A DNA stretch of 27,985 bases from a virus (IMGVR_UViG_2609459774_000007:1-27985), one strand, 5' to 3'. Positions 1 to 22,163 are shown, counted from the stretch's first letter. The notes: generated by a model not told the origin, from the sequence alone. Numbers and translations are program-made.

Positions 1-483
1 ATGACGAAGAAAAAAGCACATAAACCTGGTTCAGCGACCATCGCGCTTAACAAGCGCGCCCGTCACGAATACTTTATCGAAGAAGAGTTCGAAGCGGGAC
101 TTGCCCTGCAAGGCTGGGAGGTTAAATCCCTGCGCGCAGGAAAAGCCAATATCAGCGACAGCTACGTCCTTCTGCGTGACGGAGAGGCATTTCTGTTTGG
201 CGCTAACATCACGCCAATGGCCGTGGCCTCCACGCATGTGGTGTGCGATCCTACCCGTACCCGCAAGTTACTTCTCAACCAACGCGAACTGGACTCATTG
301 TACGGTCGCGTCAATCGAGAAGGCTATACCGTAGTGGCGCTCTCCCTGTACTGGAAAAATGCCTGGTGCAAAGTGAAAATCGGCGTCGCCAAAGGTAAAA
401 AACAGCACGATAAACGTTCAGATATCAAAGAACGCGAATGGCAGGTGGATAAAGCACGTATCATGAAAAACGCCCACCGTTAA
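1..483 (+). CDS. smpB: SsrA-binding protein SmpB (trans-translation factor)
   Basis: 160-aa ORF matching enterobacterial SmpB over its full length as I recall it; lies immediately upstream of the tmRNA gene, the conserved smpB-ssrA arrangement. Confidence 0.95.
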
Positions 484-639
484 ACCTGCACTCCAATTAT
501 TGACCAGTTCCTCACCGCGCCTCCCTCTCCGGCGGCGCGAATGAACATCTTATTGGCTATCACATCCGACACAAATGTTGCCATCCCATTGCTTAATCGA
601 ATAAAAATCAGGCTACATGGGTGCTAAATCTTTAACGAT

Positions 640-697
640 AACGCCATTGAGGCTGGTCATGGCGCTCATAAATCTGGTATACTTACCTTTACACATT
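640..697 (+). promoter_or_regulatory. putative ssrA promoter region
   Basis: A -10-like hexamer TATACT at 678-683 lies about 15 nt upstream of the mature tmRNA 5' end (698), consistent with a short processed leader; the -35 element is not clearly identifiable. Confidence 0.4.
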
Positions 698-1060
698 GGG
701 GCTGATTCTGGATTCGACGGGATTTGCGAAACCCAAGGTGCATGCCGAGGGGCGGTTGGCCTCGTAAAAAGCCGCAAAAAATAGTCGCAAACGACGAAAA
801 CTACGCTTTAGCAGCTTAATAACCTGCTTAGAGCCCTCTCTCCCTAGCCTCCGCTCTTAGGACGGGGATCAAGAGAGGTCAAACCCAAAAGAGATCGCGT
901 GGAAGCCCTGCCTGGGGTTGAAGCGTTAAAACTTAATCAGGCTAGTTTGTTAGTGGCGTGTCCGTCCGCAGCTGGCAAGCGAATGTAAAGACTGACTAAG
1001 CATGTAGTACCGAGGATGTAGGAATTTCGGACGCGGGTTCAACTCCCGCCAGCTCCACCA
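698..1060 (+). ncRNA. ssrA: tmRNA (transfer-messenger RNA, SsrA)
   Basis: 363-nt sequence starting GGGGCUGAUUCUGGAUUCGACGGG and ending ...GGUUCAACUCCCGCCAGCUCCACCA; the tRNA-like acceptor/T-arm 3' end and overall length match E. coli tmRNA; directly downstream of smpB. Confidence 0.95.
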
Positions 1061-1064
1061 AATA
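1016..1064. repeat. attachment-site direct repeat, copy 1 (3' end of ssrA; attL of the P2-like element)
   Basis: 49 bp (ATGTAGGAATTTCGGACGCGGGTTCAACTCCCGCCAGCTCCACCAAATA) repeated exactly at 12713-12761; this copy is part of the intact tmRNA gene. Confidence 0.85.
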
Positions 1065-1068
1065 AATC

Positions 1069-1103
1069 AAGGGGTTACGTGAAAGCGTAGCCCCTTTTTC
1101 TTT
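1069..1103 (+). terminator. Rho-independent terminator immediately after ssrA (supplied by the inserted element)
   Basis: 11-bp stem AAGGGGTTACG/CGTAGCCCCTT (one G-U pair) with a 6-nt loop, followed by a TTTTTCTTT run, starting 9 nt after the tmRNA CCA end. Confidence 0.6.
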
Positions 1104-1183
1104 GGTAGTGGCGGCAAAATGGCGACAGACTATTGCGTCCATCTTGCCTATCGCCATCTTGAAATCATGCAAAGAGGTTTCAC

Positions 1184-1666
1184 ATGGAAGAACTTCACTT
1201 TGTTTACATCAATGCAAATGGTCGTATCGGTGTTCACTCAATACAGAGCATCAGTTATAGCGAAAATCATATACAGGGCATTTGTAAGAACACCGATCGA
1301 ATAAAAACCTTCCGAAAAGACCGCATTCTTAAACAGTACGATTCACCAGAACAAGCCATTCAGGAATGCGCGTCATTCCTCCCCGAAAACTACTCACATC
1401 TCACTAAGCAGTCTGGTCCGAAAAAAAATACATTCGATGTGTGTTTCACCGGATTTAAGAAAGCAGATAAAGAAAGATTGGTTGATAAGGCGAATGAACA
1501 AGGATTAACGGTAAGAGCCTCTGTAACCCAAAGCCTTCAGATGCTCTGTTGCGGTTACAATGCAGGCCCATCGAAAGTATCGGCAGCCAGGATGAAAGGC
1601 ACAATCATCATAGATGAGCCTGGCTTTATACATTTTCTTGAAACGGGTGAGATCCCAGATGAATAA
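1184..1666 (+). CDS. small BRCT-domain protein (uncharacterised N-terminal domain plus C-terminal BRCT fold); prophage-end cargo
   Basis: 160-aa ORF with a good RBS (AGAGG 6 nt upstream). The C-terminal ~85 aa show the BRCT pattern seen in NAD-dependent ligase C-termini (FDVCFTGF ... GLTV ... GTIIIDEPGFIHFL). Reads convergent to ogr. Confidence 0.6.
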   Translation: MEELHFVYINANGRIGVHSIQSISYSENHIQGICKNTDRIKTFRKDRILKQYDSPEQAIQECASFLPENYSHLTKQSGPKKNTFDVCFTGFKKADKERLVDKANEQGLTVRASVTQSLQMLCCGYNAGPSKVSAARMKGTIIIDEPGFIHFLETGEIPDE

Positions 1667-1668
1667 AA

Positions 1669-1684
1669 CCCTGCCGTAGCAGGT
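1669..1684. terminator. possible bidirectional terminator hairpin between the convergent BRCT gene and ogr
   Basis: Short stem CCTGC/GCAGG with a CGTA loop between the two stop codons, flanked by A-rich (left) and T/C-rich (right) sequence; the stem is short, so this is weak. Confidence 0.3.
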
Positions 1685-1692
1685 TCTCTTTC

Positions 1693-1911
1693 TCAAAAAT
1701 TCATATGCCCCTGACCACCTGGCAATGGATGTGGAGGAGCAGTAGCAATCAGTGCGGGTGTCACAATAAACCGGACCACTGTTTCATGGGTAACAAAAGT
1801 GCTCCCGCAGTTAATATTTTGGCACTGGCAGTAACGCTCTTTGGTGCTTTCAGTTACTTGAAAACTGCTCCTTGTGTGTGCCGCATGACCACATTTTGGA
1901 CAACTCATCAT
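1693..1911 (-). CDS. ogr: Ogr/Delta-family zinc-finger late-gene transcription activator
   Basis: The ORF contains CPKCGHAAHTRSS...KERYCQCQNINCGSTF...PHPLPGGQ, the Cys4 zinc-finger pattern of P2 Ogr. The 87-aa track ORF (to 1956) probably over-extends; the likely start is one of the two internal Met codons at residues 16-17 (about 1911/1908). Confidence 0.85.
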   Translation of the reverse strand: MMSCPKCGHAAHTRSSFQVTESTKERYCQCQNINCGSTFVTHETVVRFIVTPALIATAPPHPLPGGQGHMNF

Positions 1912-1979
1912 ATCCAGATCCCTACCTTTGCTATCAGAATCATTGTAATGATACACATAATATCAATATTGAGAACACT

Positions 1980-3080
1980 TTATTCCATTTCAAGATCATC
2001 AATCCTCACTTCAAGCTCCAGACTGGTCGTAAAACCGTTATCCGGGCTGACGGTATGCGTCAGAGTCGTAATGGTCCATTCCGCATCATCTATCGGCTGT
2101 TTAAAACCACTGACTTTCACTGGCATTTCCGTGTAGAGATCTGCCCGACCTTCCGCCAGTTGTAGCGAGAATGACGCAACGCCGCGTTGCAGGCGTTCCC
2201 ACTGCATTTTCGCTGCCCGTTCAGCGTTACTCCGATTAGCATAGGTGCGATTAAGTACCAGCACGTTTTCATCCGTACCCACCAGGTAATCGCCCTGCTT
2301 CGCTTCCGGCTCTTTCTTCTGCTTCTTAGTCCTGCGCTTACGCTTCACCGTAGTGCTTTCTTTCTTCGCGGGTTCGCGGGTATGCAACCAGCTGGCAATT
2401 ACGCCCGTGTAGGCTCCGCGATCTGCCAGGGTAAAGCGGTGGCTGTCGCCGTCCTTGCGTGTGATAGTGATCACTGGCAGAGGTTTACCGCTGGCGCTTT
2501 TGCCCTGTCCCTGCCGGATGAATAACAGATTGCCATTTTTCACCGACGCAATAGCACCGTACTGGCGCGCCAGCCGCATCAAAAAACTGCCGTCACTCTC
2601 ATTGGTCTGGTCTATATGATCCACGGGCTTATCCGACAGATCTTTACCCAATGCCATCTTCAGTTTGTGCCGCGCAGCTATTTCCTTCACCACTTCCCCA
2701 ACGGTGGTCTTGTGCCACGACTTTTCACGGCGGGTATTCAGCGTTTCCCGAAAATCAGCACTTCGCGCCCGGATAGTCAGTCGGTCCGGTGCGCCAGTGT
2801 GTTCAATCTCGTCCACCGTGAATGCCCCTTTCGGGAAAAGCGGCTGCCCCTTCCAGCCCAGCGCCAGCGTAATGACCGCACCACGGCGCGGCAGCACTAT
2901 TTTTCCATCGGCGTCGTCCAGCTCCAGATCAAGCTGGTCCGCTTCAAAGCCCCGGTTATCCGTCAGCGTCAGCCTCATCAGGCGGTTATCCAGCACAGTG
3001 GTGATATCCCTGCCCTCAATACTGATGCTGAATGCGGGAGTTTTGTTGCCTTTGTTAAGCAGTTCAGAGCTGAAATTCAC
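1980..3080 (-). CDS. D: P2 gpD-like tail protein (late control gene D family)
   Basis: 366-aa ORF placed immediately upstream of ogr on the same strand, the conserved D-ogr arrangement at the end of the P2/186 tail operon; the length and position fit gpD. Confidence 0.8.
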   Translation of the reverse strand: MNFSSELLNKGNKTPAFSISIEGRDITTVLDNRLMRLTLTDNRGFEADQLDLELDDADGKIVLPRRGAVITLALGWKGQPLFPKGAFTVDEIEHTGAPDRLTIRARSADFRETLNTRREKSWHKTTVGEVVKEIAARHKLKMALGKDLSDKPVDHIDQTNESDGSFLMRLARQYGAIASVKNGNLLFIRQGQGKSASGKPLPVITITRKDGDSHRFTLADRGAYTGVIASWLHTREPAKKESTTVKRKRRTKKQKKEPEAKQGDYLVGTDENVLVLNRTYANRSNAERAAKMQWERLQRGVASFSLQLAEGRADLYTEMPVKVSGFKQPIDDAEWTITTLTHTVSPDNGFTTSLELEVRIDDLEME

Positions 3081-3418
3081 GACATCAGCCCTCCCACCGT
3101 TTTACTGATATCGCTTAAGGCAGATGTTGCCGTTTCCTGCAGATTATTCAGTTGCGCACTGAGATCACCGAACATATCGGACAGGGATTCATCCACCCGT
3201 TTGAGCGACAGGGTGAACTCAATCCGGCGCGGCATACCGTCGCGGAAAAACTCCGTTTTAGTCTGATTCAGTCCCTCAATCACATACATGCCGTAAATCG
3301 TGCCGCTGCCTTCAATCAGAGGCCATGCTTTCCCCTGTTCTGCCATCTGCTCCAGTGCCAGCAACGACAGCCTGCCGCCTGTTATCTCCGGCATAAGAAC
3401 ACCGGAAAGCGTCAGCAT
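3077..3418 (-). pseudogene. U: P2 gpU-like tail protein, N-terminally truncated fragment
   Basis: 113-aa ORF (TLSGVLMPEITGGRLSLLALEQMAEQGKAW...) matches the C-terminal two-thirds of gpU as I recall it; overlaps the D start by 4 nt as in intact tail operons; the N-terminal part is missing. Confidence 0.65.
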
Positions 3419-3459
3419 GTCGTTTTCCGGTCCCAGAAACTGCGTGGACGGACGTCGGT

Positions 3460-4185
3460 TTACCCGACTGTTTGCCGCATGTCGCCAGCTGCGTTGATAC
3501 TGCAGTTGTCTTCCTGCCAGTAGATGGACAGGTTATCCAGACGGGTGATCAGCAGCGCATTCGGCGGGAAGAACGGCGCACGCACGGCCTGCAGGCCACC
3601 CATGCGTTTCTGGCTGATGATCATATCGGCAGCCAGTTTTTCACTGTTTTCCTGCTCTTTGTTGACCAGCGGGAAATACTTGTCAGACAACAGTTCACGA
3701 CCGCAAATCACCACCAGACCGTCATCGTCCTGGTAAACCACGTCGATAAGCTCATTGACGGCATCCATCACCACAGCGTCCAGGTTGGCATATTCGCCAC
3801 CTTTCCCGACTTTCACCGCACCCGGAGTGGTTTCACCGCCCGTGGTGGTGCTGCCCATGACGTGATCCGGTGCATCCTCACGGATTTTCTGCAGCCAGCC
3901 TTTGTTCACATCCTGCAGCAGCGGGTTTTCGCTACGGTTGGAGGTTTTCGCACGCTTCACGCCGTTAAAGCCGATCATGATGCGGTCCAGTGCCTGACGT
4001 TTCACGATGGCGTCACGGATGCGCACCTGGAAATCCTGAAACTTCGCCCACAGATCCAGCTTCGCGTAGGTCAGCACCGTGTCAAAGTTGGTCTGCTCGC
4101 ATTTATATTCCACATCGACCATCAGGGTCGGATCGGTGAAGTGATCGCCCTTGAGCCTGCGCTGGCAAAATACACCCGACGCGGA
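3460..4185 (-). pseudogene. N: P2 gpN-like major capsid protein, internal fragment (both ends missing)
   Basis: The 220-aa ORF (3460-4122) aligns with the middle of P2 gpN (YKCEQTNFD...LDLWAKFQDFQVRIRDAIVKRQ...GFNGVKRAKTS...VISQKRMGGL...LSIYW). The frame extends upstream to a stop at 4186-4188 without N-terminal homology, and the C-terminus diverges after SIYW. Confidence 0.75.
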
Positions 4186-4540
4186 TTAGACCTGGATACC
4201 TACTGGTTTGTGCAATACGGTATGACAACCCAGCCGTATCAGTTCACGAAAGGCAGCATTTTTCATCTGATGGAACCCACTGTAGAGCCAGCCCCTTCTC
4301 TTCATCACTACACTCACTAGCCGCTACAAGCTTAAGAAAAAAATCAATGCGCTGGAGCTTCAAAGACTCCAAAAAATAGTCCTGCATCTTTCCTCCTATA
4401 ACACCACACGCAATACTGTATGTATAACCACTGTTTATATTTACAGTATATAATAATCTTACTGATGTAAAACGTTTTTTTACATTCATCAGCCTGATAT
4501 GCCTGGTATTATTAAGAGCACGAATTGTTAACCCGCGTAA

Positions 4541-6955
4541 TTAATACAGGTTCCGCCACTGATCATCTTCCTGCAAACGCTGGTTCCGATAGAAGATACG
4601 CAGGCCTGCTCCTGACGGAATACTGCCTCCGCGAAGGAGTAAATCGATCTCTTTCTCGCTGCCATCAAATCCTCTGGACTTCAGCTCATACACGAGCTGC
4701 AGTCGCTGATGGTCTGTAATTCGCTGTTTGTAGTCTTTACGCCGTTTCGGTTTCACCAGGCGTAACCTTGCTGCCAGTTCCCGGCGCTCTTTTTTGCTCA
4801 TACTGTGCAGGTAATCGTGCAACTCCTTGTCATCCATGCTGGTAATGTCCGTTCTGGGGTCCCCATCAGCTGATTTATCTTTCTCCTGTTGGTTCAAATT
4901 TTCAGCAAGGGGACAGTTATTGCCACGAGTCCAAGGGGCGCAAGCGCCCTGGTCGGCTGCCGCCTCCTGAACGTCAACGGCCTTACGAACCATTTTCCAC
5001 TTCACTGCATGAGTGCAGATCTTGCCCTCTGCAATGGGTGACCAGATGCCATAAATACGAATGCCGTGATCGCCATAGGCGGTCGGCTCTTCGTTGATTT
5101 CATAAGCGGTTCTGATCAGGTGATATTTGCGGGGAACCAGTACGCCGCCCTGCTTCATGATGTAGGTGGCAAAACAACCAGCATCAGCAGCAGCCAGGAT
5201 TGCATCAAGGCGCGGGTTATCCAGTACCGGCGCACCTGCTTTTTTGTCCCCCTGTTGCCTTGCCGCCTGACCAGCCAGCAATCGCAGTTCACGGTAAGCC
5301 TGACGCCCCGGAATGCCAAAGAAGCGGAATTGCTGAACACGATGCAGAGACGCCCAGGCATTAACGTATTCAGCATTATCACGCAGGGATTTCCCCGTTT
5401 CCTTGCTGATCTCGCCAGCCAGACCACGCCCGTCAATGTTCTTACTGATGTATTTCGCGATGTAGCTTGTTGGCGTACCTTTGCGCGGGTTAATCAACTC
5501 AGACTTAAAGCGCGGCCCAGTGTTATTGCCCAGCTCCTCGCGGTCTTCACGGATGGCAAACTTACGCAGTAATACAGTGATGGCGCGGCGGTCTTTTTTG
5601 CGCATAAAACACAACAGGTGCCAGTGAACTGTACCGTCATGATGCGGCTCAGCCACCCGCACGCCATACCAGCGCAATCCGGCTTTGTGCATCGCCTTAC
5701 GAAATGCAGCAAACATGCCGACCAGGTAATCACTACTTTGTCTTACCGTCGCATTTGTCCAGGTTGGGTTGGGCCTGCCGTTATTTAGCGTGGAATGGAA
5801 ACGTGACGGACAGGTGATGGTGTAGAAAACGGCACAGTCACTGCGCATTTCAGCGATAAGCTCCAGACCTTTAACACAGGCCATCATCTCATTGCGGCGA
5901 TGCGCCGGGTTGCTGCTGCTGGCGTTTACCACATCTTCCATATCCAGCGTGTCACCGTCTTCGTTCACCAGTTCATGAGAACGGAAAAACTCCAGCGACT
6001 TACGGCGCTGCTCACGTTTATGCATCACGGCTTCATAGCTGACATAGGGAGATGCTTTTTTGCTGACCAGACAGACAGCACGCAACTGCTCTTCCCGCCA
6101 TTCGCAACGCATCTTCCATAATTTCCTATACCACCAGTCGGCGCACAGCATACGCGCCAGCGAACCCGGAATGAGTTCATAGGGCACGGGTTTACGGCGG
6201 TTTCTTTTCCGACGGAGTTGCTCAAACGCAGGCGGGATGACATCCAGTCGCAGGGTTTCTGCTGCCACCTTTTCCCATGTCTTGCGGATTTCTTCTGGCT
6301 TAACATCATCGGTGGCGTACAAATCACCACAAGCGGCATCAAGACACATGCTCATATGCGCAGCGACAAGAGTAGACAGGCGTTTCACCTGATCCTGACT
6401 CATTTCAGGCAGGATCAGCAGGCCGTCCAGCCCTTCATGGCTTGCCATAAAGCGAAAAGAAGTGGATAGCTGACTCTCGCGTACATGCTCCAGTCGTTCC
6501 AGACATGGCTTAATCGTCTCACGCAAATAGCGGGAATAAGCCTTTGGCCTGCCCAGGCTGCTGAAGTATTCGATACGTTGCATCAGCGGCTTGCTGATGT
6601 GGGTGGGCTGGGCGCTGACATCTGCCAGAATGACCATGTCTGGGTTAAAACGCTGCTGCTCATGCGCCAGCTTTGCCCGACTAATGAGCTTATCCTGCTC
6701 CATTTCGCGCTGGACAGGATCACGGGATTCATTAAAGAAATAACGCTCCCAGACCTGATCACTCAGTGCCTCACGGCGCAGCAGTTCCTGCTCGTTATCG
6801 GCAGCGTACAGAGTGATCAGGTTTGAAAGCGCAGAAACCGGCGCAACTTCCGCCGGGTCCAGATAAGGGTTAATGGCCTTTTTCGGGCTGTTCCATGAGA
6901 ACGATGCGGAAGCCTCGTTAAAGCCGCAGCAGTTGTTCATATCGGCATGGTTCAT
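4541..6955 (-). CDS. A: P2/186 gpA-like rolling-circle replication initiation endonuclease
   Basis: 804-aa ORF with the HxH metal-binding motif (VHWHLL) and the paired-tyrosine motif YIAKYISK typical of phage gpA initiators; located between the early regulatory genes and the structural gene remnants. Confidence 0.85.
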
Positions 6956-7917
6956 GCACGTACTCCGTACACGGCAGAACTATCCACGCCACGCGAATAA
7001 TCAAATCCCACCCAGCAGCGCGGCCCGGAAACAGCGATGATTTCTGTTGCAGATTTACTCTCACCAGCTGCTACGCCGATGCTGCGTTTTGCCTTGATGT
7101 AGTGGTGAGTAAAATTGCGATACAGCGAACGGATCAGGGATGTGTCACTGTTAGAAATAATGACCGGATGTCCTTCTGATGACCGATGTTCAAGAACGGA
7201 TGCCAGGTGATACTGGTCATCTTCAGTGAAGCCGTCAGTGTGATAACCGGAAAACGTGCCGTCATACGGCGGATCGCAATACACCACATCCCCCGCCTTC
7301 AACATCGCCAGCGTTTCATCAAAGCTGGCGCAGATAAACGTTGCCCGCTGGGCTTTTTCTGCAAATGCGCGAATTTCTTTTTCAGGAAAATACGGATTTT
7401 TATAATTACCGTAGGGAATGTTGAAATGCCCGCTCTTGTTATAGCGACATAAACCACGGTAACCGTGACGATTGAGATACAGGAAATATACCGCTTTCAT
7501 GAAATCAGTAATTTCAGTTGAGTAATTAAACTCCTGCCTTATGTTGTAATAAGCCACCTCCCTGTTTGCTTCCTCAAATAAAGCTCTGGCGCGAGATATA
7601 AACGATTCACAATCAGCAGCAACCTTTTTATAGAGGTTGATTAAATCAGGATTAATATCCGCAACAAGATAGCTGGGGTAGTGGATCTCCTGCGCTTCGT
7701 TCTGGATTGCTTCAGCGGTCACACGCAGCAGTTCTGCCGCTTCGACGTGGTTTAGCTGGCGGGATGTGATATGACACGCAAGACTATCAAGGCGGGCAGC
7801 CATTGCTTCAGCCCTTGCCCGGCGTTCTTCCAGACGAGCCTCTGTCAGTAAAATATTAAGCCCTGCGTCATCCGGTCCGATTTTAGTCGTGAGGGTTTCA
7901 ATATTACGCATAATCAA
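6952..7917 (-). CDS. Dam-like N6-adenine DNA methyltransferase (D12 class) with a non-canonical N-terminus
   Basis: Residues ~85-300 align with E. coli Dam from the ADIN(S/P)DLI(S/N)LY segment through FLYLNR.GY.GLCRYN, PYFPE and the catalytic DPPY motif (VVYCDPPY). The first ~85 aa are unrelated and the KWAGGK/FxGxG region is not seen. Confidence 0.8.
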
Positions 7918-7978
7918 TTCTCCTGAATTTAGATAAAGGGATGCCCGGCGGGTTTACGCCATTAATTTCATTAGCTGG

Positions 7979-8320
7979 TTAATTCGGCATGGTTAGCCGT
8001 CTGGGAAATAAGCTCACCACTGCACGAAAATGATTCATTGCTTTAATCAACTCCCGCTTTTCGTCAGTGGTCAGCTCATTAATGCTGATGCTATGACGTT
8101 CAGCTGGAATTTTTGCCATAAAGAATATGGCAGCCAGTGCCCGTTTATTTTGTTCGCTATTAATATCCCGTGGATCACGCATATCTTTAATAAACTGCTC
8201 AAGCTCTGACTCAATATTAAGACCAAAAACTTTCGCTCTTAATTCCGCAATGTGATTAAGTCCATTCAGGCGTTCACCGGGGCTTAATGGAACAGTCGCC
8301 GCAGCGCCTTCAATAGCCAT
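7979..8320 (-). CDS. hypothetical prophage early protein (position equivalent to 186 dhr)
   Basis: 113-aa ORF on the early-operon strand between the cII/fil region and dam; no recognisable motifs. Confidence 0.45.
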   Translation of the reverse strand: MAIEGAAATVPLSPGERLNGLNHIAELRAKVFGLNIESELEQFIKDMRDPRDINSEQNKRALAAIFFMAKIPAERHSISINELTTDEKRELIKAMNHFRAVVSLFPRRLTMPN

Positions 8321-8514
8321 TTGTTCCCCCGTTTTTTCGTTGATAGTTCTGCCAACAATTCATCTTGCGAACGGCACGGATGCCAGCGTTTACCATCCTC
8401 ACCCATGATCCAGCCGTGACCGTAGTGCATTGCCGGACTTTGTTTTACCAGCAGCGATGCAAATGATGGTTCTTTCGTCAGCATAAGCACCTCACAGCAA
8501 ACCGAATGAAGCAC
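8284..8514 (-). CDS. hypothetical small early protein, possibly Fil-like
   Basis: 76-aa ORF directly downstream of cII in the position occupied by fil in phage 186; overlaps both neighbours, as is common in compact phage operons. Assignment is by position only. Confidence 0.4.
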   Translation of the reverse strand: MLHSVCCEVLMLTKEPSFASLLVKQSPAMHYGHGWIMGEDGKRWHPCRSQDELLAELSTKKRGNKWLLKALRRLFH

Positions 8515-9001
8515 CGAGGCCAGTCACGGTATCAACTGCACTCGCCATCGCAGGATTAGCCTGTAAACGGGCCTGCAATGAAACAGCCGCCAGCGCCATC
8601 AGTCGTGTAACAGAGTTAATGCTGCTGATCGCATCACGACGGCCTGCACTGGTTTTTACATCGCCAGAAACCGCCCCTGCCGCAACACGCCCGATCTCTG
8701 CGGTTGCACTCATGACGTAATGTGGCAGTTTCTCTTTTGCTACCTCATTAATCGGTACACATGGCAGGCAGTGAATCTGTGCCAGAAAACCATCTATCAG
8801 CGTTGAGTCTTCTGTCAGATCGGTAAGCAGCCAGATTTCTGGCGCATTGAGCTGATGCGGTTGATCTGGGTTGAGTTTGTTTCGCAGTGTCTGAACATTC
8901 ATTCCTGCACGTTCTGCCAGCTTCGCCATATTGTGATGTAGTGCAAAAGCTCTACAGGCTTCATCAAAATGCGGGTGTTTGGAAATCTTATAATCAAACA
9001 T
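8492..9001 (-). CDS. cII: 186-type CII-like transcriptional activator
   Basis: 169-aa ORF, the length of phage 186 CII, with an N-terminal HTH-like segment; sits in the apl-cII-fil order downstream of the divergent cI/apl switch. Confidence 0.7.
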   Translation of the reverse strand: MFDYKISKHPHFDEACRAFALHHNMAKLAERAGMNVQTLRNKLNPDQPHQLNAPEIWLLTDLTEDSTLIDGFLAQIHCLPCVPINEVAKEKLPHYVMSATAEIGRVAAGAVSGDVKTSAGRRDAISSINSVTRLMALAAVSLQARLQANPAMASAVDTVTGLGASFGLL

Positions 9002-9033
9002 GCTACCCCCTTAGAAAGTTCTCATAATTGAAC

Positions 9034-9276
9034 TTACTTACCAACAATGACGCGGAAGTTGGAATGACCGAGGGATTCACGGACCTGATCGGTTTTGTAC
9101 ATTAAATAACGCAGGCTTACGCGGCCTTTGTTTTTTTCTTTCTTGACCATGTATTTAGCAAGCTGACCATGGTGAATTTTTTGATACACGGAGCCGCGGG
9201 AGATACCTTCCCATTCCGCGAACTCAGCAGGCGTTGCCATCTCTTTTGGTACACGAATTGAAATATCAGTACTCAT
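9034..9276 (-). CDS. Apl/Cox-family small HTH protein (putative excisionase / lytic-promoter regulator)
   Basis: 80-aa ORF transcribed divergently from the repressor gene, first gene of the early lytic operon; HTH-like segment ATPAEFAEWEGISRGSVYQKIHHGQL. Confidence 0.55.
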   Translation of the reverse strand: MSTDISIRVPKEMATPAEFAEWEGISRGSVYQKIHHGQLAKYMVKKEKNKGRVSLRYLMYKTDQVRESLGHSNFRVIVGK

Positions 9277-9392
9277 AGTGCAGTATCTCTTAGTTTGGTT
9301 TCGTTTTATCTTGTTTTATGTGGTTTGGTTTTGCTTTTCAAACCATAAATGGATATTAGGATCACTTTTTATATACGTCAAGAGGTTTGATT
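9277..9392. promoter_or_regulatory. divergent lysis-lysogeny switch region (apl/cI intergenic; candidate operators and promoters)
   Basis: 116-bp AT-rich intergenic region between divergent apl and cI, with repeated GTTTGGTTT / TGGTTTGGTTTTG motifs and an inverted AAACCA copy. Confidence 0.5.
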
Positions 9393-10025
9393 ATGAGTTT
9401 AATAAAGGCGGGAAATGATAGTGGTGGGCGCGATGCAATTAACAGGCTTATTAAGGCTTACAACTTCAGCTCACGACAGCAGCTCTGCGAACATCTGGAA
9501 GTATCAAAAAGCACTATGGCTAACAGATACTTAAGGGATAGCTTTCCTGCCGAATGGGTAATTCAATGTGCCCTTGAAACAGGAGCTTCCCTTCTATGGC
9601 TGGCTACTGGTCAAGGAGATATGTATGCGTGTGAGAACGAAGAAACAAATCTCAAAAATGAACCTCCTGTCACTGTAAGACCACTTTCTAAGATCGTTGC
9701 TCCTAGCATCAAACGTGTTGAACTGAAGAACGGCGAACTGCAGCCAAGTGATGAAATTCTTCTTGATAGCAGCCTGCTCGATGGTGACTCATCCAACGCT
9801 TTATTTGTTAAAACAGCTAATAATAGCTTTGTAGTGGATACGTCCGTTAAACAAGTCAGTAATGGCTTCTGGTTAGTCGATATGGACGGAGTTAAAAGCA
9901 TCGTTAAAATTGCGCGCATACCCGGAAACAAAATAGTAGTTAACCAAGATGACACTTCATTTGAATGTTCTGTAGATGATGTGGAAGTCGTAGGACGTGC
10001 AGTCAAAGTAATCAAGAACCTCTAA
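9393..10025 (+). CDS. cI: 186-type CI-like immunity repressor
   Basis: About 210 aa with an N-terminal HTH (VSKSTMANRYLRD...) and a C-terminal oligomerisation-like region; immediately upstream of int as in 186-type prophages. The track ORF starts at a TTG (9387); ATG at 9393 has AGAGG 7 nt upstream. Confidence 0.75.
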   Translation: MSLIKAGNDSGGRDAINRLIKAYNFSSRQQLCEHLEVSKSTMANRYLRDSFPAEWVIQCALETGASLLWLATGQGDMYACENEETNLKNEPPVTVRPLSKIVAPSIKRVELKNGELQPSDEILLDSSLLDGDSSNALFVKTANNSFVVDTSVKQVSNGFWLVDMDGVKSIVKIARIPGNKIVVNQDDTSFECSVDDVEVVGRAVKVIKNL

Positions 10026-10028
10026 CTT

Positions 10029-11048
10029 ATGACCATCAGAAAACAGCCGAACGGAAAATGGTTGTGTGAGTGCTATCCCAATGGACGCAATGGTAAGCGC
10101 GTGCGTAAGCAATTTGCTACCAAAGGCGAAGCCATTGCGTTTGAAAGCTTCACAATGGAAGAAGTGAACAAAAAACCGTGGTTAGGAGAAAAGGATGATC
10201 GGCGACACCTATCAGAATTAATTGAGCTTTGGTATTCCCTGTATGGTCAGACACTCGCAGACCCCAAGCGCCTCATGGCGAAACTTAGAATTATCTGTAA
10301 TGGTCTAGGCGACCCCATCGCCTCAGAACTGACAGCCGGTGACTTTACGAAATACCGCGAAGCACGGTTAAAAGGTGAAGTACGAAATGAAGATGGGACG
10401 CTTATGTCGCCCGTTAAGCCCCGCACGGTAAACCTCGAACAGCGCAATCTATCATCGGTGTTCGGTACATTAAAAAAACTAGGACACTGGTCAGCACCAA
10501 ACCCGCTGGCAGGACTTCCAACCTTCAAAATTGCCGAAGGTGAGCTGGCTTTTCTTTCCATGGACGAAATCAAGCGCCTGTTGGCTGCATGTGCTGAATC
10601 TCAAAGCCCCAGCTTATTAATGATTGCCAAAATATGTTTGGCTACCGGCGCACGTTGGAGCGAAGCCGAAAACCTGCATGGCCACCAAATATCGAAATAC
10701 CGAATTACTTATATAAAGACAAAAGGTAAGAAAAACAGAACAGTACCGATATCACAGGAACTATATGACGAACTCCCCAAGCACAGAGGGAAGTTATTCA
10801 CGCCATGCAGAAAAGCCTTTGAGCGTGCAGTAAAGCGGGCCGGTATTGAACTTCCGGAGGGGCAATGCACCCATGTATTACGTCATACATTCGCCAGCCA
10901 TTTTATGATGAACGGCGGAAACATACTGGTACTACGCGATATTCTGGGCCATGTGGATATAAAAATGACGATGATTTATGCCCACTTTTCCCCTGACCAC
11001 CTAGAAGATGCGGTAACAAAAAACCCACTGTTTAATTTAAAATGGTAA
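10029..11048 (+). CDS. int: P2-type tyrosine integrase
   Basis: 339-aa ORF with clear similarity to P2 Int (PxGRNGKRxRxxF...; catalytic-region HxLRHTFASHFMMNGG...MxYAHF); transcribed toward the attR repeat. Confidence 0.9.
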   Translation: MTIRKQPNGKWLCECYPNGRNGKRVRKQFATKGEAIAFESFTMEEVNKKPWLGEKDDRRHLSELIELWYSLYGQTLADPKRLMAKLRIICNGLGDPIASELTAGDFTKYREARLKGEVRNEDGTLMSPVKPRTVNLEQRNLSSVFGTLKKLGHWSAPNPLAGLPTFKIAEGELAFLSMDEIKRLLAACAESQSPSLLMIAKICLATGARWSEAENLHGHQISKYRITYIKTKGKKNRTVPISQELYDELPKHRGKLFTPCRKAFERAVKRAGIELPEGQCTHVLRHTFASHFMMNGGNILVLRDILGHVDIKMTMIYAHFSPDHLEDAVTKNPLFNLKW

Positions 11049-12583
11049 ATTTAACGATGAAAAGATTGAAATCAGTTTCCGATGCAGTTATCCAACTCAG
11101 ATTAAATGCGGTAAAAGCAAGTATTCAAAGCGTCAATCCAAACGAGTTTATAACACATTGCCTTGATTATAACCTCCAGAAATTTAACAATCAGCTTGAA
11201 ATGTTACAACACCTACCATGGGTTGTGAATTTATGCATTAAATGGTCCGCCAGTGCGCTGGGTAAAAAACGGAAATTTAAACATATTGACAGACCTGGTG
11301 CTGTCAGGTTGCTACAACGAGCATATGAGGAACTAAGTATAATTCCAACTGGTCTGGAAAATATAGACAAAGGGATTAACTTTTTCCTTAGAAATACGTT
11401 ATATCAACAAGGTATTTATCAAAGATTAGATGCTTTAAATACAATTAGCAGACAAGTTTTCTTGTTTTCTTCCTTAGATGACAACAATAGAATCAAGCGT
11501 AGATTCAAAGAACTTACTGATGTTGATATAAACGATTTTCTAAAACTATCATTTGTGTTAGTATCACTCGTTACCTTACAAGCACCAGTAAAGAAAATAA
11601 CAATAGATTCTTTCGCAGCTCTTTACTCCGTAATACCTAAAGATACAATCGAGAAATTTCTGAATACTATATCTATCCCTTACGAAGAACTAGCTCGGTT
11701 TTGCTGTACAAAAGATAATGAGACACCTTTAGTAGAATATTATGCTCCATCGCCTTTCTTAGAAAAACCTTTCATCAAATTCGAAGGAAATTATCACCAA
11801 ATACATACGCAGCTAACTTCGACCAGTATACAAACCTTTATATATGATTTGCTTCGCAGAGATGATGCAGAATCGTTCATGGACAAATTTGGGCGAGTTT
11901 TCGAAAATGCAGTCAACCAGCTATTAGATGAAAGTGGAATTGCTTATATTGCTGAAGGAAATTTAAAAGAATATCTACCTCAAGAGAATAAAGTTGTAGA
12001 TTTTCTACTACCTCATGATGAAGCTAACATTTTCATCGATGCTAAAGGTGTTGAGATAAACCAAAAGGGAATGGTTACACTACGACCAGGGGATATTTCT
12101 GCCAATATAAAAAGCTCCGTATTAAAAACTATAGAACAAGCACACTCAGTAAATAGAGAGCTAATTAAAAAAGGTAACCAAAATTTTTCTTTTAAAAAAG
12201 AGTCCTACATTTTATGTCTTACTTATAAAAATTTATTCCTTGGAAATGGTACATTTCTAAATAAATCCTATGCTAACATCGAAATGAAAAAAATCCGAGA
12301 TAGGCATTCAGAAGAATATCAAATACCTGATGAGAACATTTTCTGCATATCATTTGAGGAATTCGAGTATCTGCTATCTTCTTGCAAGGAATACTCAAAA
12401 CCTGTACATGAGGTACTGCGAGAAGCTGTAGTTAGAAACCAAACACCATCAAGTGCAGTTTTCCTTTTTGCACATCATATCCGTGACTCATTCCCCAAAA
12501 TACGTTCATCTGAGATCGTCAGGCTCGCAGGCTTGAGCGAGATCAACCATATCGTTGAACGATTAGAGCAAGCTGGCTCTTGA
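11042..12583 (+). CDS. uncharacterised 513-aa cargo protein with a putative C-terminal PD-(D/E)xK nuclease core
   Basis: Long AT-rich ORF between int and attR, overlapping the int stop (alternative start ATG 11057). The C-terminal half has E...VVDFLLP...IFIDAKG, fitting the E/D/(D/E)xK arrangement of PD-(D/E)xK nucleases; the N-terminal ~270 aa have no recognised motifs. Confidence 0.6.
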   Translation: MVNLTMKRLKSVSDAVIQLRLNAVKASIQSVNPNEFITHCLDYNLQKFNNQLEMLQHLPWVVNLCIKWSASALGKKRKFKHIDRPGAVRLLQRAYEELSIIPTGLENIDKGINFFLRNTLYQQGIYQRLDALNTISRQVFLFSSLDDNNRIKRRFKELTDVDINDFLKLSFVLVSLVTLQAPVKKITIDSFAALYSVIPKDTIEKFLNTISIPYEELARFCCTKDNETPLVEYYAPSPFLEKPFIKFEGNYHQIHTQLTSTSIQTFIYDLLRRDDAESFMDKFGRVFENAVNQLLDESGIAYIAEGNLKEYLPQENKVVDFLLPHDEANIFIDAKGVEINQKGMVTLRPGDISANIKSSVLKTIEQAHSVNRELIKKGNQNFSFKKESYILCLTYKNLFLGNGTFLNKSYANIEMKKIRDRHSEEYQIPDENIFCISFEEFEYLLSSCKEYSKPVHEVLREAVVRNQTPSSAVFLFAHHIRDSFPKIRSSEIVRLAGLSEINHIVERLEQAGS

Positions 12584-12712
12584 TTGCACAATTGCAAATT
12601 GGCGACAAATTGGCGGCAGAGCATTAAAAATGCGTAAAATAAACAAACACCAAATAATACTAATATGCTGTTTTAAAACATAAATATATGTTTTTATCAT
12701 AATAATAATGGT

Positions 12713-12761
12713 ATGTAGGAATTTCGGACGCGGGTTCAACTCCCGCCAGCTCCACCAAATA
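12713..12761. repeat. attachment-site direct repeat, copy 2 (partial ssrA 3' end; attR of the P2-like element and attL-type junction of the P4-like island)
   Basis: Exact 49-bp repeat of 1016-1064; the sequence upstream of it is unrelated to ssrA, so this is only a partial ssrA copy. Confidence 0.85.
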
Positions 12762-12791
12762 TTGATGTACTGAAGTTCAGTAAAGTCTACT

Positions 12792-12826
12792 AAGCCCGCA
12801 CAGCACAAGCTCTGCGGGCTTTTTTA
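12792..12826 (+). terminator. Rho-independent terminator downstream of the second att copy
   Basis: GC-rich stem GCCCGCA/TGCGGGC with a ~12-nt loop, followed by TTTTTT. Confidence 0.55.
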
Positions 12827-12923
12827 CGTCTATTGTAGTCTAGTGAGAATTGCTGAGAACTACGAGTTATGGCACCCTGAATGGGACCCACGAAGATGGG
12901 TCCTAAAATCGAGGGTCCCAAAC

Positions 12924-14153
12924 ATGGCCAAAATCGCTAAGAAGCTCACTGACACTGAAATCAAAAGCACCAAACCTGCCGAAAAAGAGGTTAACCTTTT
13001 TGACGGCGATGGTTTGCTGTTGCGAATCGCTCCCCTGGCGAAGGGAGGGAAGAAAAATTGGTATTTCAGATATGCAGTGCCTGTGACCAAAAAGCGAACT
13101 AAGGTGAGCTTAGGAACCTATCCTCACCTTACACTTGCGAAGGCACGAGCTTTACGTGATGAATACTTGTCGTTGCTTACAAATGGTATAGACCCCCAAG
13201 TTCATAACAACCAAAAAGCCAATGCACTGAAAGATGCCACGGAACATACATTTCAAGCAGTAGCCAAGAAGTGGCTTGATGAGAAAGTCAAAACGTCAGG
13301 CATCTCCCAAGATCATGCTAACGACATCTGGCGAAGCCTAGAGAGAAATATCTTTTCCACATTGGGTGATACCCCAATTAAGGAGATTCGCCCTAAAATG
13401 CTTAAACAGCATTTAGAACCCATAGAAAAACGAGGTGTCCTTGAAACACTTCGCCGCATCATATCCCGCCTGAATGAAATTTTCCGCTATGCAGCAACAG
13501 AAGAACTCATAGAATTCAACCCGGCAGACAACCTGGGGCAACGGTTCAGCAAGCCAAAAAAACAGAATATGCCAGCATTACCCCCTTCCGAACTCCCTCG
13601 CTTCTTGGTTGCTCTAAACAATGCTTCTATCCGTTTGGAAACAAGGCTACTGATTGAGTGGCAACTTCTCACATGGGTTCGCCCAGGTGAAGCTGTTCGC
13701 ACAAGATGGTCAGATATTGATATTGAAACTGGCATGTGGAACATCCCGGCGGAGTTTATGAAAATGAAGAAGCCTCACAAAGTTCCACTGAGCAAAGAAG
13801 CTTTGCGAGTTTTGGATTTAATGAAAGTCATCAGCGGGCATAGAGAGTGGGTGTTCCCCAGTATCAAAGCTCCACTCAATCACATGCATGAACAAACAGC
13901 TAATGCGGCCATAATCCGTATGGGTTTCGGAGGTGAGCTTGTAGCTCACGGTATGCGATCCATTGCTAGAACGGCTGCTGAGGAGTCTGGCAAGTTTAGG
14001 ACTGATGTCTTAGAAGCCGCCCTTGCCCACTCGAAGAAAGATGAAATAATTGCAGCCTACAATCGTGCAGAGTATCTCACTGAACGGGTGGTTCTCATGC
14101 AATGGTGGAGTGACTATGTTTCGTCTCAAAAATGCAAAGTTATTGCCGCATAA
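12924..14153 (+). CDS. P4/IntA-family tyrosine integrase
   Basis: Strong similarity to E. coli CP4-57 IntA as I recall it (LTDTEIK..KP, DIWRSLER, LETLRR, PLS.EAL.(V/I)L, HG.RSIA.TA, LAH, AYNR.(E/D)YL..R...MQWW.D). The track ORF starts at 12843; the homology-supported start is ATG 12924 (MAKIAKKLTDTEIK). Confidence 0.9.
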   Translation: MAKIAKKLTDTEIKSTKPAEKEVNLFDGDGLLLRIAPLAKGGKKNWYFRYAVPVTKKRTKVSLGTYPHLTLAKARALRDEYLSLLTNGIDPQVHNNQKANALKDATEHTFQAVAKKWLDEKVKTSGISQDHANDIWRSLERNIFSTLGDTPIKEIRPKMLKQHLEPIEKRGVLETLRRIISRLNEIFRYAATEELIEFNPADNLGQRFSKPKKQNMPALPPSELPRFLVALNNASIRLETRLLIEWQLLTWVRPGEAVRTRWSDIDIETGMWNIPAEFMKMKKPHKVPLSKEALRVLDLMKVISGHREWVFPSIKAPLNHMHEQTANAAIIRMGFGGELVAHGMRSIARTAAEESGKFRTDVLEAALAHSKKDEIIAAYNRAEYLTERVVLMQWWSDYVSSQKCKVIAA

Positions 14154-14215
14154 CTCTCCCATGATGGATTAACTATCTTGATTTAGTTAAAGAATTAATA
14201 ATCACACCATTAACC

Positions 14216-14265
14216 TATGTGGACTAAGCATAGCCATTTACAAATGGGGACATTGAGTCCACATA
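14216..14265. repeat. 50-bp nested inverted repeat (candidate recombinase or ParB binding/crossover site)
   Basis: Outer 10-bp arms TATGTGGACT / AGTCCACATA flank a 30-bp spacer that itself contains CCATTT-AC-AAATGG (6-bp arms around a non-palindromic AC centre); between intA and the serine recombinase gene. Confidence 0.5.
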
Positions 14266-14435
14266 ACGAAAGCTGTCGGTCATATCAGCTAAATAATTCA
14301 CATCTCTTCTCGATTATCATACACCTCGAAGATCTACCAAATTCGCTCTAATCAATGATAAAACAGTTGAATTCGGTTGAAATTTGATCAATTTTATCCA
14401 CTACATTGTATTGAATCATCCATGAGGTTTCGTGC

Positions 14436-15992
14436 ATGGCTAGCGAAAATGACAAAAATCATAGAGTTAGGGTCGCGCAGTACTTGAGGATGTCTACCGA
14501 CCATCAGCAATATTCTTTACATAATCAGTCCGAATATATCAAAGATTATGCTGAAAAGAACAATATGGAAATCGCTTATACCTACGATGATGCAGGTAAG
14601 AGCGGAGTCAGTATCGTAGGCAGGCATTCTTTGCAGCAGTTACTTAGCGATGTAGAACAAAAGAAAATAGATATACAGGCTGTATTATTTTATGATGTGA
14701 GCCGTTTTGGTCGTTTTCAAAATAGTGATGAAGCGGCATATTATTCCTTTCTATTTGAGAGAAATGGTGTAGATCTTATATATTGTTCCGAACCTATACC
14801 CACTAAAGATTTCCCTTTAGAGTCCTCTGTTATACTGAATATAAAAAGATCTAGTGCTGCATATCACAGCAGGAATCTATCTGAAAAGGTATTTATAGGG
14901 CAAGTAAATTTAATAAAGCTTGGTTATCATCAAGGCGGTATGGCTGGTTATGGGCTGAGACGTCTTTTAGTAGACGAAAATGGCATAGCTAAAGAAATAT
15001 TGAGTTTCCGCAAAAGAAAGAGTATTCAAACAGATAGGGTAATATTAATTCCGGGACCAAAAAATGAAATAAAAATTGTAAATAGAATATATGATCTCTT
15101 TATAGATAATAACGTCCCAGAATTCATTATTGCTGAGAGATTAAATGAACAGAACATACCTGCAGAAAATGGAACATTATGGACTCGTGCAAAAATACAT
15201 CAAATTTTGACAAATGAAAAATATATTGGAAACAACATATATAACAAAACCTCATCTAAATTAAAAAGTAGGCTTGTAAAAAACCCCAAACATGAATGGG
15301 TTAGATGTGACAAGGCATATAAACCTATTATTTCAAAGAAAAAATACAATAAAGCTCAAGAAATAATTCAGCTCCGATCCATTCATTTGACTAATGAAGA
15401 TCTATTAGAAAAACTAAAACAAAAATTAGAATCTAATGGAAAACTATCAGGCTTTATCATTGATGAAGATGATACAGGCCCTTCATCTTCTGTTTATAGA
15501 ACCCGATTTGGTGGTCTTTTAAGAGCATATACTTTGATTGGTTATAAGCCAGAACATGATTACAGCTATCTCAAAATAAATGAAGCACTAAGATCATTTT
15601 ACTCAGAGATAATTGAGGATTTTAAGGGTGAAATTTTAAAAAGTAACTGTCATATAGACGAGTATAAATATGCCCCAATGCTTTACATCAATGATGAGTT
15701 TTTAATTTCCGTCCTTGTTACTAAATGCATACATATGAAATCAGGTAAACTTAGATGGAAAGTCCGGTTTGATAACTCACAGAAAGCAGACATAACAATT
15801 GTTATACGAATGAATTCACAAAATATTTCACCTCTTGATTTTTATATCATACCAAAGATTGAAAACGAATATAATAAAATGTGCATGACGGAAACAAACA
15901 ACATTCGATTAGATCTCTATAGATTTGATAATCTTGATAAACTTCTACAAATTATTACTCGCATGAAAGTGAGGGAACTATATGCTGCCTGA
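14436..15992 (+). CDS. large serine recombinase (resolvase/invertase catalytic domain plus recombinase domain)
   Basis: 518-aa AT-rich ORF; the N-terminus has the serine-recombinase catalytic pattern (YLRMSTDHQQYSLHNQ ... YDDAGKSG ... DVSRFGR); RBS GAGG upstream. Confidence 0.85.
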   Translation: MASENDKNHRVRVAQYLRMSTDHQQYSLHNQSEYIKDYAEKNNMEIAYTYDDAGKSGVSIVGRHSLQQLLSDVEQKKIDIQAVLFYDVSRFGRFQNSDEAAYYSFLFERNGVDLIYCSEPIPTKDFPLESSVILNIKRSSAAYHSRNLSEKVFIGQVNLIKLGYHQGGMAGYGLRRLLVDENGIAKEILSFRKRKSIQTDRVILIPGPKNEIKIVNRIYDLFIDNNVPEFIIAERLNEQNIPAENGTLWTRAKIHQILTNEKYIGNNIYNKTSSKLKSRLVKNPKHEWVRCDKAYKPIISKKKYNKAQEIIQLRSIHLTNEDLLEKLKQKLESNGKLSGFIIDEDDTGPSSSVYRTRFGGLLRAYTLIGYKPEHDYSYLKINEALRSFYSEIIEDFKGEILKSNCHIDEYKYAPMLYINDEFLISVLVTKCIHMKSGKLRWKVRFDNSQKADITIVIRMNSQNISPLDFYIIPKIENEYNKMCMTETNNIRLDLYRFDNLDKLLQIITRMKVRELYAA

Positions 15993-17771: not shown

Positions 17772-18879
17772 TCATGGTTTTATATAGCCTAAATAAACCA
17801 AGAAGTATACTTACACAACGACCTTCACGCCGAAGAAGCTGTCAGATACGCCAGCAACCAAAGCATTACGTTTAAGTGTCAGTCATTGATACGAAGGGAT
17901 AACTGCGTATCAGCAGCCGGACATTGAGTCGAATAAAGGCTGGTAGAGAGGGACAGTTCTGTGTCATCGGGAGATTCGTCAGAAACATCAGCGGCAGAAC
18001 AGATGAACCAGCAATTGGTAGTGCACAGAAAACTCTCCAGTATTTAATTATTCAACTTAACACTAAAAAAAATCACATAGTTAATATCATAATTTTTCTT
18101 TGGTCTACGTATGCGAGAGATATTGTGGCTTTAACCGGGTATTAGGAGTCGTTTCAGATAAAAGATGTTCTTCGATTCGACTGGACTTGGTAATAGCAAT
18201 AAGTAATCGTTAATATTGAAGGACGAAAGGCTACTTCAAAACAAAGTAACCTTTCCAATATTCCCATCTATGGGACAAGTGGTACATTAACTGCACATAG
18301 TGCAGGATACATATGACATAAAACTTTTTATTTATGGCATACATTATAAATAACTTGTATTTTATGAATGTCAATAGGTTCTTGTTTAATACTTTTAAAA
18401 TTATTAATTGATTGTTTTTATTATAGCTTCGCTTGTACAAGCGAAGATCCTATTGTTCTTGAATGAATAATGCCAATTATAAGAGAAGCAAGGGCTAACT
18501 CTGCGAAGCCGCTGCGCTTGCTTCTTCGAGTTCCCCTTGCTTTTCTGCCCTTCGGTTATAAAAGAAGCCAAACTGCTACCAACCTTGAATCTCTATATTT
18601 TTGAATAGACAAACATTACCCGCTCCCTTAATCACCACTATCAAAAATAAAAAATCATCTTACAAATAACCCCATACACATCATTTTAGATTGCGACCTT
18701 ATTAAATTAAAAATTCAACCTTAGATGGAATTTAATGTACAAGGAATGTCCTACTGTAACGGAGAATTTTAAACATTAAAAATTACAACTATGGTTTGTC
18801 ATAGCCTGTACATCTATTCACCTCATGCATATGCACTAAGAAAGCTTTTTTGAATACTGGAGTTGTCCCTGCTAAAACG

Positions 18880-22105: not shown

Positions 22106-22163
22106 AATAATTATGCGGGTGTACAGCCCGCTCTCTGGTTAAGCGGCAATAAGGACAGTACGC

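Follow-up and report, generated by a model that had tools for sequence, protein, structure and literature searches.

The window analysed here (the whole of IMGVR_UViG_2609459774_000007:1-27985, a stretch of viral DNA of 27,985 nucleotides) contains ssrA, the gene for transfer-messenger RNA (tmRNA), and two mobile elements that lie downstream of it. We conclude with high confidence that the window is the smpB-ssrA locus of E. coli with a two-member tandem array, in which a genomic island with an IntA-type integrase arrived first, a phage arrived later, and the resulting prophage then underwent four deletions. The case is built from a direct repeat of the 3' end of ssrA, the gene content of each element, a reconstruction of the phage attachment site (attP), a map of the deletions, and the occurrence of each element independently of the other. 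Island before phage is the most likely order of arrival, judging from the sequences of related genomes.

A repeat search of the window found a single long direct repeat, at 1016-1064 and 12713-12761, and a string comparison agreed that the two copies are 100% identical. The repeat consists of the 3'-terminal 45 nt of ssrA, followed by AATA just past the CCA end. Because the bases outside the repeat differ on both sides (G at 1015 versus T at 12712, and A at 1065 versus T at 12762), it is exactly 49 nt long. A preliminary description of this DNA had reported this exact copy of the tmRNA 3' end, and had proposed that copy 2 is both the attR of a P2-like prophage and the attL-type junction of a P4-like island, two unrelated elements that were captured sequentially. 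It had also placed a P2-type integrase to the left of copy 2, reading toward it, and a P4/IntA-type integrase about 160 bp to its right, reading away from it. We found both integrases as described, with the ATG of the second at 12924, 163 nt to the right of the repeat. However, the phage integrase does not directly adjoin copy 2, being separated from it by a GapS1-family gene and a 129-nt arm.

If copy 2 is the phage attR, then joining the two junctions should recreate the attP of a phage. We searched this predicted attP (12300-12761 joined to 1065-1500) against a phage collection. From position 301 of the query (window 12600) to its end, it aligns to Escherichia phage Cartapus as a single colinear stretch (94.5% identity), and the match sits between an int-side cargo gene for a RES-domain protein and an ogr-side cargo gene for a 160-amino-acid (aa) protein. 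In a five-way alignment, the 49-bp core of the Cartapus attP is identical to the repeat in the window, its left arm corresponds to the window sequence left of 12713, and its right arm, including a terminator hairpin, corresponds to the window sequence right of 1064. Since the Cartapus attP is contiguous across the core, an ssrA 3' end and a terminator are part of the phage itself, and copy 2 is the attR core of the prophage, as proposed. Both arms also contain a pair of TGGCGRCA octamers with the same spacing, and these pairs are conserved at equivalent positions in the Cartapus attP (23352-23370 and 23558-23576). By analogy with P2-family integrases, they are candidate arm-type binding sites for the phage integrase.

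To describe how often each arrangement occurs, we ran junction-specific queries against 5426 complete Escherichia coli genomes. The site is empty, with ssrA joined to the ypjA flank, in 1389 genomes. In 968 genomes, ssrA is joined directly to an island of this integrase type; in 87, the phage arm and the ssrA fragment are followed by the ypjA flank (phage only); and in 50, the phage arm and the fragment are followed by IntA (the tandem junction). Individual genomes show each element alone. In AMA1167, which has no phage, window positions 1-1064 (100% identical) abut 12713-27794 (99.98% identical) with an overlap of exactly 49 bp, so that excising 1065-12761 from the window recreates the AMA1167 arrangement. 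In AZ147 (Ecol_AZ147), which has no island, the same phage lineage (99.6-99.9% identity) with the same GapS1 gene and a different internal deletion is followed by ypjA. Of the complete genomes, 261 cover at least 80% of the island (12700-27985 as the query), and in most of the top matches the alignment starts at query position 14, which is window position 12713. Island-only genomes match from exactly the first base of copy 2, as expected of the left junction of the island, and their integrase starts about 165 nt past ssrA. Furthermore, the 100% identical island of MS20649 is preceded by an Elveevirus remnant that differs in its cargo genes and its deletion, and WS4437A-1 carries a further variant of both elements.

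We propose the following history. An IntA-type island would have taken the 3' end of ssrA, bringing its own ssrA 3' end and terminator, and its right end would later have been eroded by insertion sequence (IS) elements. A temperate phage of the genus Elveevirus, closely related to Cartapus, would then have recombined its attP (45 nt of ssrA plus a hairpin) with the intact ssrA. This would have regenerated a complete ssrA with the phage hairpin as its terminator (attL at 1016-1064 plus 1069-1103), and it would have pushed the earlier 45-nt 3' end out to copy 2, where it would serve as the phage attR and as the left junction of the island. By coincidence, AATA would have followed the CCA end in both the phage and the island; because both have it, the repeat is 49 nt long rather than 45. 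Finally, the prophage would have lost about two-thirds of its genome through four microhomology-bounded deletions. These would have removed cos, the head, tail, and lysis genes, and the N terminus of Dam, and would have left the immunity, integration, and replication genes along with two att-flanking cargo genes (one of them GapS1).

The genome comparisons argue for this order. In many phage-free genomes the island is 100% identical, shares the IS1 and IS2 scars, and has no distal ssrA fragment; at least two different phages lie in front of the identical island. Because the window without 1065-12761 is the AMA1167 arrangement, it is most likely that the island came first and that the phage later entered an intact ssrA. 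Also, an island without an attR cannot move site-specifically, which supports its having already been in place.

Several points weigh against this account. The final sequence would be the same for either order, so the order rests on parsimony across genomes, and the island-only genomes could in principle stem from precise excision of the phage. The exact pairing of this remnant with this island was not found among the complete E. coli genomes; the nearest match has 83% coverage at about 95% identity, and the best match to the tandem junction is 95.8% identical. The right end of the island lies past the end of the window, and its erosion is seen solely in relatives that are 100% identical up to the window edge.

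The main competing explanation is that the phage arrived first, at an empty ssrA, and that the island then entered the displaced 45-nt fragment, that is, the phage attR. The fragment holds the entire 13-15-nt core that is seen at the right ends of related islands in K-12 and WS4437A-1, a second element may use either of the regenerated cores (PMC7192596), and the resulting sequence would be identical. However, more than 200 phage-free genomes have the 100% identical island with the same IS scars and the right end lost, so the same scars would need to have arisen repeatedly. In addition, AMA1167, which has only the island, shares the window's smpB-ssrA flank at 100% identity, and different phages lie before the identical island. 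We therefore consider this order unlikely.

It is highly improbable that the whole region from 1 to 28 kb is a single composite element that has two integrases and is inherited as a unit. Physical adjacency favors this explanation, but each part occurs alone at ssrA elsewhere (the phage in AZ147 and the island in AMA1167), the counts of 968 genomes with the island only, 87 with the phage only, and 50 with both refute co-inheritance, the free phage Cartapus contains no island DNA, and the G+C content varies along the region. The preliminary description had named two observations that would overturn it, namely a second copy that is not identical to the first and a single co-inherited element; we found 100% identity and independent occurrence. 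It is just as improbable that copy 2 arose by chance or is an assembly duplication without att function, and we found nothing in favor of this: by our own estimate, about 1e-21 exact 49-mer matches would be expected by chance in 28 kb (about 4e8 position pairs x 4^-49), and the artefact is refuted because 50 independent complete genomes have the same fragment where phage and island meet, and because the fragment is part of the attP of the sequenced phage Cartapus.

The integrations also affect how ssrA ends. The preliminary description had noticed a hairpin and T-run after each copy of the repeat and had suggested that the inserted element supplies a replacement terminator for ssrA. Both terminators are present and are predicted to fold stably: the hairpin at 1069-1096 has a 12-bp stem and is followed by TTTCTTT (-19.8 kcal/mol, z = -4.6), and the hairpin at 12792-12821 is followed by TTTTTT and lies within a 78-nt segment, 12758-12835, with a folding energy of -27.0 kcal/mol (z = -4.9). 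Because the phage attP has its hairpin directly after its ssrA fragment, the inserted element does provide the terminator of ssrA. The final 45 nt of ssrA may also be phage-supplied now, depending on where within the core the crossover took place.

Features of the window (coordinates in nt from its first base)
Feature	Position	Strand	Evidence or remarks
smpB, chromosomal flank	1-483	+	Pfam SmpB, E = 1.5e-57; smpB annotated in relatives
ssrA (tmRNA gene), intact	698-1060	+	ARAGORN, tag ANDENYALAA; Rfam RF00023, 295.8 bits (gathering score 47)
Repeat copy 1, phage attL core	1016-1064	+	45 nt of ssrA plus AATA
Intrinsic terminator brought by the phage and now that of ssrA	1069-1103	+	Hairpin plus T-run; also in the Cartapus attP at the same place
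TGGCGRCA octamer pair, P' arm	1109-1127	+	11 bp apart
att-adjacent cargo open reading frame (ORF), 160 aa	1184-1666	+	Weak BRCT-like Pfam match below family cut-off; "putative exonuclease" in Cartapus
ogr/Delta-like late activator	1693-1956	-	NCBIfam PRK09678, E = 2.3e-32, 111.3 bits, just under the cut-off of 116; annotated in relatives as 1693-1911
gpD late/tail gene, full length	1980-3080	-	Pfam Phage_GPD; colinear with Cartapus gp30
gpU fragment, N terminus deleted	3077-3507	-	Pfam GpU, profile positions 45-120 only; deletion junction 1 at about 3507
Major capsid gene (gpN), internal fragment	3507-4135	-	Pfam Phage_cap_P2, profile positions 90-289 of 327; equals Cartapus 5559-4931
Portal gene, internal fragment, 145 nt	4133-4277	-	Equals Cartapus 1545-1401; between deletion junctions 2 and 3
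Full-length gpA (replication endonuclease)	4541-6955	-	Pfam Phage_GPA, E = 2.5e-126
DUF2732-Dam in-frame fusion	6952-7917	-	Made by a 353-bp deletion
186-type early lytic operon	7979-9276	-	DUF5347, Fil, CII, Apl/Cox-like excisionase (9034-9276); Pfam, Cartapus and PGAP annotation
186-type CI repressor	9387-10025	+	Pfam Phage_CI_repr and Phage_CI_C
P2/186-family tyrosine integrase, intact	10029-11048	+	Pfam Int_N and Phage_integrase
GapS1-family anti-phage gene, 513 aa	11042-12583	+	NCBIfam NF047931; int-attP cargo slot; PGAP start would be 11057
TGGCGRCA octamer pair, P arm	12600-12618	+	11-bp spacing
Repeat copy 2, displaced ssrA 3' fragment	12713-12761	+	Phage attR core and island left (attL-type) junction
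Island-borne intrinsic terminator	12792-12826	+	Serves ssrA in island-only genomes; homologous to the ssrA terminator of CP4-57 in K-12
P4/IntA-type tyrosine integrase	12924-14153	+	Pfam Arm-DNA-bind_3 (PF13356), Phage_int_M (PF22022), Phage_integrase (PF00589)
Large serine recombinase	14436-15992	+	
ParB/RepB-like genes, two consecutive	15982-16878, 16875-17771	+	
Type I restriction-modification system, hsdM, hsdS, hsdR	19368-25403	+	Island cargo
IS1	25449-26113	-	
Ankyrin-repeat gene	26633-27502	+	
IS2-family transposase	27473 onward	-	Runs off the window

The first element had been described as a P2-like prophage. It does belong to the P2/186 family: it has P2-family late genes, gpA, ogr, and a 186-type CI/Apl/CII switch (from Pfam and NCBIfam matches and 94-97% nucleotide identity to Cartapus). 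But it is an 11.6-kb deletion remnant of a phage of the genus Elveevirus, and it can no longer form particles. The complete virion, lysis, and cos module of a functional prophage is absent. Cos is deleted, and what is left of the virion genes is gpD, a fragment of gpU, a fragment of the capsid gene, and 145 nt of the portal gene. The integrase, which is intact, is retained along with Apl/Cox, CI, CII, gpA, both attP arms, and the GapS1 gene.

When we mapped the element onto the 33.4-kb genome of Cartapus with blastn, we found five retained blocks that are not adjacent in Cartapus (window 1016-3507, 3507-4135, 4133-4277, 4274-7680, and 7679-11050). Because these five blocks are joined at short overlaps, of 1-4 nt, the element has undergone four deletions. 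The first, of about 15.4 kb, runs from gpU to the capsid gene, and the second, about 3.4 kb long, joined the capsid gene to the portal gene. The third, of about 2.8 kb, removed the remainder of the portal gene, cos, and adjoining accessory genes. The fourth, of 353 bp, removed a TraR/DksA gene and the first 43 residues of Dam, including the VEPFAGS motif for binding S-adenosylmethionine. The truncated Pfam matches of gpU and the capsid protein agree with this map. From its sequence, the Dam methylase in the DUF2732-Dam fusion is probably inactive. (The Dam part of the fusion keeps its DPPY motif.) We infer that the remnant could still excise but cannot be packaged.

We also inspected four Elveevirus prophages at ssrA (those in the window and in AZ147, and two others). 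All four are independently truncated, with deletions that differ, and all four keep the early region from int through CI, Apl, and CII to gpA, along with the cargo that flanks att. This would fit a pattern in which Elveevirus prophages at ssrA repeatedly lose their virion and lysis genes but keep those for immunity and defense.

The cargo gene between int and copy 2 encodes a protein of the GapS1 family, as judged from its sequence: it matches the NCBIfam model NF047931 with 401.6 bits (the cut-off is 320) over profile positions 1-455 of 455. The 2023 release of PADLOC gave no match for this 513-aa protein, which NCBIfam identified. The G+C content of the gene is low, at about 34%. GapS1 is a described anti-phage protein, and in Vibrio, GAPS1 has a PD-(D/E)xK active site (D313/K328) and causes a capsid-triggered dormancy (bioRxiv 10.1101/2023.03.28.534373). 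The contents of this int-attP slot vary: it holds GapS1 in the window and in AZ147, a RES-domain protein in Cartapus, an HNH endonuclease in WS4437A-1, and a 401-aa hypothetical protein in MS20649. The slot between attP and ogr holds either the 160-aa BRCT-like "exonuclease" or a 237-aa hypothetical protein. The Elveevirus attP looks like it is flanked on both sides by variable cargo slots that form a defense hotspot.

The second element had been described as a P4-like island. Its integrase is indeed of the P4 type (NCBIfam PRK09692, 444.6 bits, with a cut-off of 434), and the gene is placed as in CP4-57-like islands: directly downstream of the fragment, on the same strand, and with a 3'-terminal sublocation in ssrA. 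But a Pfam scan of the 16 main island ORFs, among the listed ORFs of at least 60 aa, turned up nothing beyond the serine recombinase, the two ParB-like proteins, HsdM, HsdS, and HsdR, the IS elements, and the ankyrin protein, and none of the P4 satellite features (the P4 alpha primase-helicase, sid/psu/delta, and cos). The same scan found no AlpA-type excisionase, with the small ORFs at 17.7-19.4 kb lying outside it. (These small ORFs look non-coding or IS-derived.) The element is thus no P4-like satellite but a genomic (defense) island whose integrase is of the P4 family. Directly behind the integrase, the island has a module of a serine recombinase and ParB/RepB-like proteins (14436-17771, G+C about 32%). 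This module is 96% conserved in WS4437A-1, where the downstream cargo is instead NACHT and RelA/SpoT proteins. It may act as a second recombination system, in a partition-like role, or in defense.

The right part of the island (25449-27985) is eroded. The preliminary description had suggested looking for a third partial copy of ssrA at the far end. We found none in the window, using the 18-nt 3' end of ssrA with up to 3 mismatches and the scar of the 3' end that lacks a T (see below) with up to 2 mismatches; the sole further match has 3 mismatches and is due to chance, on the opposite strand within the Dam coding region (7748-7765). Nor is there a distal ssrA fragment within 17 kb downstream in MS20649, whose island is 100% identical. 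In relatives, the right end of the island is bounded by IS2 and followed by an amylase pseudogene and glaH. With its attR probably lost, the island is probably immobile. A distal scar is found only in the more distant WS4437A-1, whose related island still reaches ypjA. There, the right end is a 13-nt sequence, CGCCAGC-CCACCA, in which one T is missing.

The same scar is present at the 14-nt attR of CP4-57 in K-12, with the T357 deletion. It has been reported that excision of CP4-57 leaves the T357 deletion in ssrA, which inactivates the gene (PMC10107115); this deletion is explained because the scar at the CP4-57 attR has no T357. These sequences place the core of the IntA-type integrases in the last 13-15 nt of ssrA. 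The displaced 45-nt fragment includes all of this core and could therefore plausibly act as the island's attL. In a separate observation, just one genome, that of the laboratory strain E. coli DTU-1 (labelled "in vitro laboratory"), matched a synthetic query for the empty site at 100%, including the T deletion. Such a match would be in keeping with a K-12 derivative that lost CP4-57 and whose ssrA carries the T357 deletion.

These observations raise the possibility, which we offer tentatively and regard as rather doubtful, that a phage in the tandem array insulates ssrA from the excision switch of the island. An island behind a phage has the displaced 45-nt fragment for its left junction, so that the T deletion would land there; excision of the island would then put the deletion in a dead fragment and the tmRNA would stay intact. 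AZ147 has the layout that this would produce: an intact ssrA, then the phage remnant, and then a T-deleted fragment joined to the ypjA flank. The attR fragment of its phage (16088-16150 of its stretch) lacks the equivalent of T357 and reads CGCCAGC-CCACCAATCATG, which is exactly the scar at the right ends of two islands, CP4-57 in K-12 and the one in WS4437A-1. This looks like the footprint of an IntA-type island that excised from a tandem array by using the displaced fragment as attL. It could equally be that the phage entered and repaired an ssrA that had already been inactivated by excision of an island. In the window, any such shielding would be history and not a live switch, as the attR of the island is probably gone.

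Beyond correct annotation, our findings matter little, but the window illustrates clearly how mobile elements build up at ssrA. The latest arrival adjoins the gene and provides its 3' end and terminator, and earlier ones are displaced away from it and decay. The boundaries can be given to the base, with the phage remnant at 1065-12712 plus one copy of the repeat and the island from 12762. The prophage should be annotated as defective, because cos and the virion genes are gone, yet it has an intact integrase, repressor, and GapS1 gene.

Among sequenced phages, the closest to the remnant is Cartapus (NC_070909.1; Peduoviridae, Elveevirus). The two share the 49-bp ssrA core, both arms with their TGGCGRCA pairs, the terminator hairpin, and the gene order int, cargo, attP, cargo, ogr, D, U. 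Their integrases are 95% identical over the full length of 338 aa without gaps, and nucleotide identity is 94-97% across gpA, the cargo gene on the ogr side, and the fragments of the late genes. In contrast, Cartapus is complete (33.4 kb, with cos), the element in the window is 11.6 kb after its four deletions, the int-attP slot has different cargo (a RES-domain protein versus GapS1), and the region from CI to int is only about 86% identical. P2-like phages that integrate in ssrA were already known from Salmonella, namely Fels-2 and SopEPhi (PMC3448106; they are also tabulated in PMC10107115, which cites Williams 2003). From their descriptions, these are also P2-family temperate phages with a 186-type CI/Apl switch and with ssrA as attB, but they have another host and are complete.

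Islands with P4-type integrases at ssrA are likewise established, such as CP4-57 of E. coli K-12. As in the window, CP4-57 has its P4-type integrase gene right after ssrA and on the same strand, the island-borne ssrA terminators are homologous, and the integrases share their architecture and NCBIfam family. However, the island integrase is just 48% identical to IntA of K-12, and the cargo is wholly different (a serine recombinase, two ParB-like proteins, and a type I restriction-modification system in the window). Also, CP4-57 is an IntA/AlpA island, and no AlpA homologue was found among the scanned ORFs of the window; and CP4-57 has its 14-nt attR, whereas the right end of the window's island is lost in its closest relatives.

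The overall arrangement is that of the tandem arrays described by Islander and TIGER, in which an intact tDNA is followed by an element, a fragment, and then a second element. Every member of such an array encodes its own integrase, and the gene is restored by the attP of the latest arrival (PMC4383910, PMC7192596). The attP of an island carries a tDNA fragment that restores the gene, 125 tandem arrays have been catalogued, and among integration targets the tmRNA gene shows the strongest enrichment (PMC4383910); the mechanism by which tandem arrays form has also been described (PMC7192596). TIGER compares each member with uninterrupted sites, and these exist: AMA1167 lacks the phage, AZ147 lacks the island, and 1389 genomes have the empty site. 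Islander looks for a full-length tDNA at one end, an integrase gene for each member, and a distal tDNA fragment in the same orientation for each member. In the window, ssrA is full length and both integrases are full length relative to their relatives; the phage has its fragment (copy 2) and the island has none. Strict use of Islander would call the phage only, because the distal member does not have its own fragment. Phages were found at similar frequencies before the island (50 of 1018 genomes) and before the native flank (87 of 1476), in counts that are uncorrected for phylogeny, and because these are similar, phage integration seems to ignore the downstream sequence. A tandem of a phage and an island at ssrA is already known, and nothing in the window departs from the published descriptions.

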